From sequence record PV778520.1: a DNA stretch of 59,541 nucleotides. One strand, written 5' to 3'. Position numbers and translations under genes: made by a program. Within the stretch, counting starts at the first letter, position 1, and every line of letters begins with the position of its first letter. The DNA comes from Escherichia phage RCIP0359. The notes beneath the pieces are model-generated. The model was not told where the DNA came from, made no database searches, and saw only the letters and a program-made list of their open reading frames with translations. Positions 53,252-54,372 of the stretch are shown here, in pieces.

Positions 53252-53503
53252 ATGTGCGACTCCAGTGCAAGCGCTACACCCAGCACCTCCAGCAATGTGG
53301 TTACAGAGGTAAATGCAATGCGATTAGGTCCATATCGCGGCTATTATGGTCGTGCTGCATGGAATGACGCTACTCAACGTTTTGAAGGCTGGATTATCTG
53401 CCCGGAACGTGTTAAATTTCACTCCGTAAAAGAGAAAAATATCGTTCTTAATTTTCAAAAATGTGTCACTAAATATGTAGAGGAGCAAGAAGAATGCGTG
53501 TAG
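53252..53503 (+). CDS. hypothetical protein
   Basis: 83 aa; strong RBS AAGGAGG. Confidence 0.5.
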   Translation: MCDSSASATPSTSSNVVTEVNAMRLGPYRGYYGRAAWNDATQRFEGWIICPERVKFHSVKEKNIVLNFQKCVTKYVEEQEECV

Positions 53504-53745
53504 GGGAGGGTGAAAAGGTTGTCAACTATTTCGGGACTCAGGTTATAGTACCTGCCTGGGTTAATTGGCTCGCGGTTGATAAATGTGAAGAGCTCTATGC
53601 TTACGAAAACGAGCCTTATATAGACGAATGCGACGATTACGACAAATGGTATGAGGATACGGGTAAATCCATCTTTATTGGCGAGTTTCCTTTCGAAGAA
53701 GGTCGTTGGGTAAATTCTTTAGTTAATGTTAGTTCGGAGGCTTAA
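53494..53745 (+). CDS. hypothetical protein (three-member family)
   Basis: 83 aa; motif VPAWVNWLAVD. Confidence 0.5.
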   Translation: MRVGEGEKVVNYFGTQVIVPAWVNWLAVDKCEELYAYENEPYIDECDDYDKWYEDTGKSIFIGEFPFEEGRWVNSLVNVSSEA

Positions 53746-54024
53746 ATGCGTGTAGAAGAGATTGTTGAAGGTAAAGAGTATCGTTTACTGACCGATATTG
53801 GCGGTGTTGGGTATACTCCGGGCGATGGTGTTGAGTTCCGGGAACTGAAAGCTGGTTCTATTGTCACTGTTAATAAGGTGGTGTTTGATCTGCATAGCCT
53901 TTTCGGGCAGTGGAAACATACTGTAATTGTTAGCCAGGGTAGCGATGAATACGATGAAGAAGAGGATGCTTACGAAATTAGTTATACTGGTCTTGTAGGC
54001 GCCAATTTCCTGGAAGAAGTATAA
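53746..54024 (+). CDS. acidic hypothetical protein
   Basis: 92 aa; RBS GGAGG. Confidence 0.5.
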   Translation: MRVEEIVEGKEYRLLTDIGGVGYTPGDGVEFRELKAGSIVTVNKVVFDLHSLFGQWKHTVIVSQGSDEYDEEEDAYEISYTGLVGANFLEEV

Positions 54025-54075
54025 TTATCAATCTATAATGGGCTCTACGGAGCCCTTAATTATCTGGAGGTTGTT

Positions 54076-54372
54076 ATGCTTTATTTAGGAATGGATGAAA
54101 CTGGACACGCAATTCCTTCTGTTAACAAGGAGACGCAAGTATTTACCGACTATTATGGGTTTGCTGTCCCTGTTGAGCCCTGGGCTAACTTTATCGCTGT
54201 AGATGCAGACGGTAAAGTTCATTGTTATGACGCCAAACCTTCTTGCTATGAATCTGGTAAGCAATGGATGCTTGGCGTATACGGTTTGCATGTGCGCTAC
54301 TGCGGTGAAGTTGACCTTGAAGGTAGTGACTGGCGTGATACGCTAAGGGAGATCAAACATGTCTGCTGCTGA
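54076..54372 (+). CDS. hypothetical protein (three-member family)
   Basis: 98 aa; RBS GGAGG; motif VPVEPWANFIAVDADG...EVDLEGSDW. Confidence 0.5.
   Translation: MLYLGMDETGHAIPSVNKETQVFTDYYGFAVPVEPWANFIAVDADGKVHCYDAKPSCYESGKQWMLGVYGLHVRYCGEVDLEGSDWRDTLREIKHVCC

Follow-up and report, generated by a model that had tools for sequence, protein, structure and literature searches.

Three diverged members of the PHROG 1972 family of small acidic proteins in the Seuratvirus Escherichia phage RCIP0359

Three small proteins are encoded in the genome of Escherichia phage RCIP0359 (PV778520.1; 59,541 nt, analyzed in full and referred to as the window), and an earlier note on this DNA described them as diverged paralogs kept by selection for diversification, possibly in the conflict with host defense. 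Do these proteins indeed form one family, how has it evolved, and what could its members do? The phage is a Seuratvirus (Queuovirinae), and its relatives are ~59-kb E. coli siphophages in which guanine is replaced by preQ0. The 52.5–55.5 kb segment with two of the three genes is 90–97% identical to 33 Seuratvirus phage records, including PLYYY01, CSP1, Greed, CAjan, and Seurat, and in well-curated relatives all genes considered here are labeled “hypothetical.”

Copy A (positions 53494–53745, plus strand) encodes 83 aa with pI 4.05, copy B (54076–54372, plus strand) encodes 98 aa with pI 4.83, and copy C (32898–33200, minus strand) encodes 100 aa with pI 4.53; each has a Shine–Dalgarno-like site, an ATG, and a stop codon. 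The ribosome-binding site of copy A, as read from the sequence, is GAGGAG (53480–53485, plus strand), and that of copy B is GGAGG (54066–54070, plus strand), with a matching upstream sequence in five related loci. The start of copy A overlaps by 10 nt the upstream gene (53252–53503, plus strand; a weak HicB-like PHROG match, E = 0.0047), and its stop codon abuts the next ATG (TAAATG). In copy C, the ATG shares nucleotides with the stop codon of QueE (ATGA), an arrangement suggestive of translational coupling between the two; the last ~15 residues of copy C are a low-confidence tail, which has 47 nt in common with the 5′ end of the next gene. The ribosome-binding sites, the overlapping stop and start codons, and the ortholog dN/dS values of 0.07–0.41 (see below) show that A, B, and C are real genes.

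The family had been assigned to the span 53494–54372; copies A and B are indeed members, but the gene between them (53746–54024, plus strand; phrog_27099, unknown function) lies in the same span, is unrelated to them, and does not belong to the family. Between this gene and the ribosome-binding site of copy B there is a GC-rich hairpin, GGGCTCTACGGAGCCC (54040–54055, plus strand), also kept in phage DruSM1 according to a deletion-primer sequence; the hairpin may serve for termination or RNA processing and put A and B on different transcripts. A scan for promoters and terminators yielded as many sites as expected by chance. Copy A, the middle gene, and copy C have the same start, ATGCGTGT (Met-Arg-Val; positions 53494, 53746, and 33197, respectively). 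The shared 5′ sequence ATGCGTGTW was considered as a recombination junction and rejected, as this 9-mer is no more frequent in the window than expected by chance: its count is reached in 33 out of 100 shuffles.

The alignment and profile comparisons proposed in the earlier note demonstrate significant similarity between the copies, and thus the existence of a paralogous three-member family is confirmed. The BLASTP E-values are 6e-13 for B and C (33% identity over 73 aa), 5e-11 for A and C (44% over 45 aa), and 3e-6 for A and B. The profile of all three retrieves just these proteins among 984 six-frame ORFs of the genome, with the next match at E = 0.55, and no fourth copy is seen among these ORFs. 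The independently derived PHROG 1972 profile matches copies A (E = 7.3e-17), B (E = 2.5e-27), and C (E = 6.6e-24) over most of its ~75–80-residue domain, and the family HMM built here matches them with E-values from 1e-23 to 2e-31. The copies match the whole PHROG 1972 domain with no distinguishing differences and, as far as profile comparisons can tell, belong to this family and to no other family tested. The core motif quoted in the earlier note holds in full for copy C and nearly so for copy B, with VEPW in place of VP.W; in copy A it is degraded, with DKCEE instead of D.DG and EFPFEEGRW instead of EVDLEG.DW.

PHROG 1972, a domain family common in lytic phages, and its satellite PHROGs (11307, 23941, 21375, 19703, and 26007) are all annotated as “unknown function.” A word-indexed homolog search yielded two and then 14 proteins, and the full HMMER search against 1.84 billion representatives was needed to recover the family, which comprises 1300 proteins at E ≤ 1e-3 (representatives at 50% identity). 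According to tblastn, the family is present in 220 records of sipho-, myo-, podo-, and jumbo phages, with all matches labeled “hypothetical”; the groups are Queuovirinae, ~48-kb Klebsiella siphophages, Wifcevirus, Phapecoctavirus, T4-like phages, ~75-kb Escherichia podophages (vB_EcoP names), and jumbo phages. The hosts of more than 200 member-carrying phages include Enterobacteria, Vibrio, Acinetobacter, Pseudomonas, and Xanthomonas. Among 72,556 plasmids, two records contain a member; when 185,579 species genomes were scanned with a single peptide pattern, which limits the sensitivity, one locus was found, on a metagenome-assembled contig, and a search for related loci with a narrower alignment gave ten viral loci and one genome locus. 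In the collections searched, nearly all occurrences of the family are in phage genomes or phage-like contigs. Scans against Pfam, NCBIfam, and PADLOC gave no match for the family domain in the three copies and multi-domain relatives, nor was there any Pfam match at E ≤ 1 when the three copies and 72 diverse members were scanned singly; literature searches on phrog_1972 and on expression of the Wifcevirus homolog returned nothing useful.

The AF2 model of copy C, based on a 72-sequence alignment, has seven short beta strands (pLDDT 90, pTM 0.75), and in a natural two-domain member this unit is predicted twice (pLDDT 84, pTM 0.67). The family model has no fold match in PDB, and the 36 predicted viral proteins matching it at E < 1e-3 are all uncharacterized. 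The conserved positions (here and below, in the numbering of copy C) are Tyr16, Gly18, Ala31, Asp33, Gly36, Pro45, Trp54, Leu71, Trp76, and Leu80, along with the VDLEG.DW..TL motif. Copies B and C retain nearly all of them; copy A retains the Gly, Ala, Asp, Pro, Trp, and Leu residues and has lost D35–G36 and the VDLEG motif. Copy B also has an N-terminal extension of ~18 residues (MLYLGMDETGH...) and conserved His-Cys/Tyr-Cys positions. Residues 46–65 are hypervariable, except for Trp54, on the otherwise conserved scaffold. The conserved positions are occupied by Gly, Pro, Ala, Trp, Leu, and acidic residues, and no catalytic-type motif is seen among them. The net charge is -12.5, -7.2, and -10.2 for copies A, B, and C, respectively, and the median pI of the family is 4.6; this strong acidity argues against direct binding of DNA or nucleotides and does not pinpoint a protein target.

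Judging from sequence comparisons, the copies represent three old subfamilies and not recent duplicates within this genome, since their mutual identity is 23–35% and each has closer relatives elsewhere: copy A is 46% identical to the A-type protein gp73 of Seurat, copy B is 39–40% identical to Wifcevirus gp04, and copy C is 39% identical to a protein of Nonagvirus FritzHoffmann and 59% identical to protein P0002. B-type proteins, with the N-terminal MLYLGMD extension, are found in Seuratvirus, a related metagenomic phage, and Wifcevirus, and C-type proteins occupy the slot following QueE in Seurat (gp42) and FritzHoffmann (bas20_0035). The A slot of another Queuovirinae contig holds a protein 59% identical to copy C, and thus the paralogs move between slots.

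The suggested selection for diversification finds no support at the codon level. Pairwise ortholog dN/dS values (Nei–Gojobori) are 0.14–0.37 for A and 0.07–0.41 for B, compared with 0–0.14 for the neighboring genes, and the most variable loop of copy B has dN/dS of 0.28. Positive selection is rejected, as dN/dS stays below 1 both over whole genes and region by region; codon-level selection is purifying. The copy A allele (84–99% identical) is present in six phage records only, a ~47% allele is found in at least ten other Seuratviruses, and SeppeHuegi, CAjan, and OddieOddie have no gene in slot A. Copy B is 90–97% identical across 28 phage records, and DruSM1 and KS_W4 carry a 54% allele next to a 98% identical YAcAr gene. 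When the genome is compared with Seurat, protein identity is 99% for QueE and QueC, 98–99% for the two small genes between copy C and QueC, and 52% for copy C itself. This low value arises because a 150-bp patch (33009–33159, minus strand) cannot be aligned with Seurat; the flanking DNA is 91–95% identical, and the patch is a mosaic segment produced by recombination that stays within the central part of this single small gene. Overall, the slots are either empty or hold 47–60% alleles between 98–99% identical flanks; that is, each slot behaves as a cassette, which fits an accessory or arms-race gene at the population level. Phages CSP1 and PLYYY01 possess all three slots.

The domain is also modular. 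Among 159 retrieved members, one domain is found in 107, two in 34, and three to nine tandem domains in 18 proteins; adjacent gene arrays of family members occur in other phages, and in the annotated phages inspected members lie within arrays of small hypothetical genes. The sole recognizable fusion partners among the best 150 of the 1300 proteins are enzymes acting on (d)NTPs or dNMPs: dCMP deaminase PF00383 in P0010 and P0113, PF18909 dATP/dGTP diphosphohydrolase at the C-terminus of P0086 and the N-terminus of P0095, and a MazG-like pyrophosphatase domain (phrog_1992, E = 2e-30) in P0003. These fusions amount to five proteins among the best 150, several of them on single metagenomic contigs; the P0086 fusion, adjoining ThyX, is identical in three independent metagenome assemblies and hence is not an assembly artifact. 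The census of 142 neighboring ORFs from 14 loci outside Seuratvirus contains no recurring Pfam family, and so the gene context points to no target. As to the target, the only positive clue points to DNA or nucleotide metabolism.

Taking all this into account, we tentatively favor, at somewhat less than even chances, the reading that PHROG 1972 is a non-catalytic, acidic, modular binding domain of ~75 residues with an all-beta structure, carried by phages in dispensable accessory cassettes. Both the binding action and the nature of the bound partner are inferred. Standalone copies would probably act stoichiometrically, by sitting on a site of some conserved macromolecule of the host or the phage; arrays would provide multivalent binding or tether nucleotide-pool enzymes; and the cassettes would be gained, lost, and swapped by phages through recombination. 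For this genome alone, the significance is modest, as it has three representatives of a family already in the catalogs, with no assigned function. The family itself is notable, being large and almost confined to phages, with a confident predicted structure lacking a solved relative, tandem arrays, and fusions to nucleotide-pool enzymes. If its partner were identified, thousands of phage genes now called “hypothetical” would receive an annotation in one step, and a new principle of host takeover or counter-defense might come to light.

Could the bound partners be components of host immunity? Under this explanation, possible but on the unlikely side, each paralog neutralizes a different host immune protein, e.g., as an acidic decoy resembling DNA mimics, and the allelic cassettes are maintained by host diversity. 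Ocr, ArdA, and Arn are small, strongly acidic anti-restriction DNA mimics that bind without catalysis. The three copies share their small size and strong acidity; at the same time, no sequence or fold similarity to any characterized mimic was found, and the family, unlike ArdA, is essentially absent from plasmids. The almost exclusive phage distribution, the empty or swapped slots between nearly identical flanks, and the variable segment 46–65 on a conserved scaffold are what one would expect of inhibitors, whereas the low dN/dS and the lack of similarity to known inhibitors are not.

The genomic positions of the copies also speak for anti-defense, given the data on the related Seuratvirus DruSM1, whose ORFs were deleted singly and the mutants plated on E. 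coli with defense systems (Ojima et al., 10.1101/2024.04.14.589459). DruSM1 ORF46 is reported to act against type I BREX, according to both the deletion phenotype and plasmid complementation; deletion of ORF83 sensitizes the phage to type III AVAST, and ORF84 has AVAST III and qatABCD phenotypes (10.1101/2024.04.14.589459). In our genome, a 62-aa protein 90% identical to ORF46 (GenBank NGRRMQZB_47) is encoded inside the deazaguanine cluster (32551–32739, minus strand), two genes away from copy C. Just downstream of A and B lie the YAcAr/SLOG gene (55201–55593, plus strand; “GTP-binding domain” in relatives), 98% identical to ORF83, and the counterpart of ORF84 (55597–56067, plus strand), assigned by position and length. 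Hence, the small-gene array downstream of A and B contains counter-defense genes implicated by experiment.

The family member of DruSM1 is ORF81, a B-type protein (GenBank NGRRMQZB_93, labeled phrog 1972), and the deletion primer ends at its ATG. It occupies the same slot as copy B, has the same upstream sequence, and is 54% identical to it; on the other hand, this allele has diverged, and neither copy A nor copy C is present in DruSM1. The ORF81 deletion was obtained, and the column of affected systems is empty (10.1101/2024.04.14.589459, Table S1); thus ORF81 is non-essential in DruSM1, and no BREX or restriction-like phenotype is listed for it. This is the sole direct test of the anti-defense idea, and its outcome is negative for a diverged allele in a phage without A and C. 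Hence, the anti-defense suggestion of the earlier note has circumstantial support from the population-level behavior of the cassettes and disagrees with this knockout.

A bolder version of the binding-domain reading, which we regard as decidedly unlikely, is that PHROG 1972 represents a new fold serving as a phage-specific targeting domain. The swappable cassettes would each disable a different host factor (a defense, nucleotide-pool, or nucleoid protein), and arrays with MazG or dCMP deaminase would deliver these enzymes to the same targets. If so, the three copies would have three specificities, and redundancy of paralogs would explain the silent single knockout in DruSM1.

Still less probable, in our opinion, is a domain binding a small molecule (a nucleobase, a nucleotide, or a signaling nucleotide) as a carrier or a sponge. 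Such a function would explain both the tandem arrays, which provide more binding sites, and the nucleotide-enzyme fusions, all recognizable partners acting on (d)NTPs or dNMPs. A stacking or metal site could be built from the conserved residues Trp54, Trp76, Tyr16, and Phe17 together with Asp33, Asp35, Asp70, Glu72, and Asp75; copy C comes directly after QueE, which belongs to a pathway starting from GTP; and gp017 of Morganella phage MP1 adjoins a dUTPase. However, the net charge of -7 to -12.5 disfavors anionic nucleotides, none of the solved nucleotide-binding or sponge proteins resembles the family in sequence or fold, and variability is highest in a long loop, as is more usual for surfaces that recognize proteins.

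The position of copy C invites yet another explanation, namely, that it is an accessory subunit dedicated to 7-deazaguanine (preQ0) DNA modification, e.g., a partner of QueE, as the ATGA overlap and the family members in the same slot of Seurat and FritzHoffmann might suggest. We consider this very improbable. Both L018, an IMG/VR Seuratvirus with a 98% identical QueE, and DruSM1 have a cleanly vacant C slot; in four distant Queuovirinae-like contigs (47% identity of QueE), QueC directly follows QueE. No family member was found in L021–L025, and consistent co-occurrence with QueE, QueC, and DpdA is not observed. Moreover, the family is widespread across phage groups, with no que gene in view at the inspected loci, and the protein 59% identical to copy C resides in an A slot of another phage. 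Given the empty slots in L018 and DruSM1 and the QueE–QueC adjacency in distant Queuovirinae, a role of copy C as a component of the preQ0 pathway is largely refuted by these genome comparisons, and copy C is not needed for preQ0. This agrees with the data on CAjan, where six of the twelve cluster genes are listed as unknown (PMC7544227).

Finally, the similarity of the copies being due to chance, or the ORFs not being genes, which the short ORF length alone might suggest, deserves practically no credence, as it is refuted by the BLASTP and PHROG 1972 matches, the family size, the AF2 model, and dN/dS.

Several candidate relationships to known families were considered and rejected. The anti-CRISPR AcrIC9 (PDB:8G9T, PDB:8HJJ) is likewise small and acidic, and its 35-residue stretch resembles the pattern YFG..V..WV.WLA.D...VY...P at E = 0.03 with a four-sequence profile; the deeper 72-sequence profile gives no match at E ≤ 10, and the copies do not have its b1-b2-a1-b3-a2-a3 fold. 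The nucleotide-signal sponges Tad1, Tad2/DUF2829, and Acb2 have no match to the family in Pfam (E ≤ 1; the three copies and 72 members) or by PDB fold comparison. In phage CSP1C (region 3754–4247 of locus L002), the ortholog of copy A is labeled “antitoxin HicB” in GenBank, and its upstream gene, “RNA-binding protein Hfq”; the HicB identity of copy A is rejected, as neither Pfam nor PHROGs yields a HicB match, and both labels look like over-annotation, with no Pfam match for either protein. The label “radical SAM domain-containing protein” in relatives of the 70-aa protein encoded at 32732–32944 (minus strand) similarly looks spurious; this protein is a weak paralog of the adjoining anti-BREX candidate (BLASTP E = 7e-5 over 26 residues), and its start falls inside the 3′ tail of copy C.

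Two further observations concern other members of the family. The multi-repeat proteins P0005, P0009, P0056, P0141, and P0096 have a common extra C-terminal domain of ~120 residues (LPDWCK...RP(F/Y)...GEW), with no Pfam match for P0005, P0056, P0141, and P0096 and no PHROGs match for P0005 and P0056. In phage 9g (L004), an unannotated ORF at positions 5150–5392, between gp27 and gp26, matches the family HMM with E of about 1e-13, and thus this phage has a second family member absent from its annotation.
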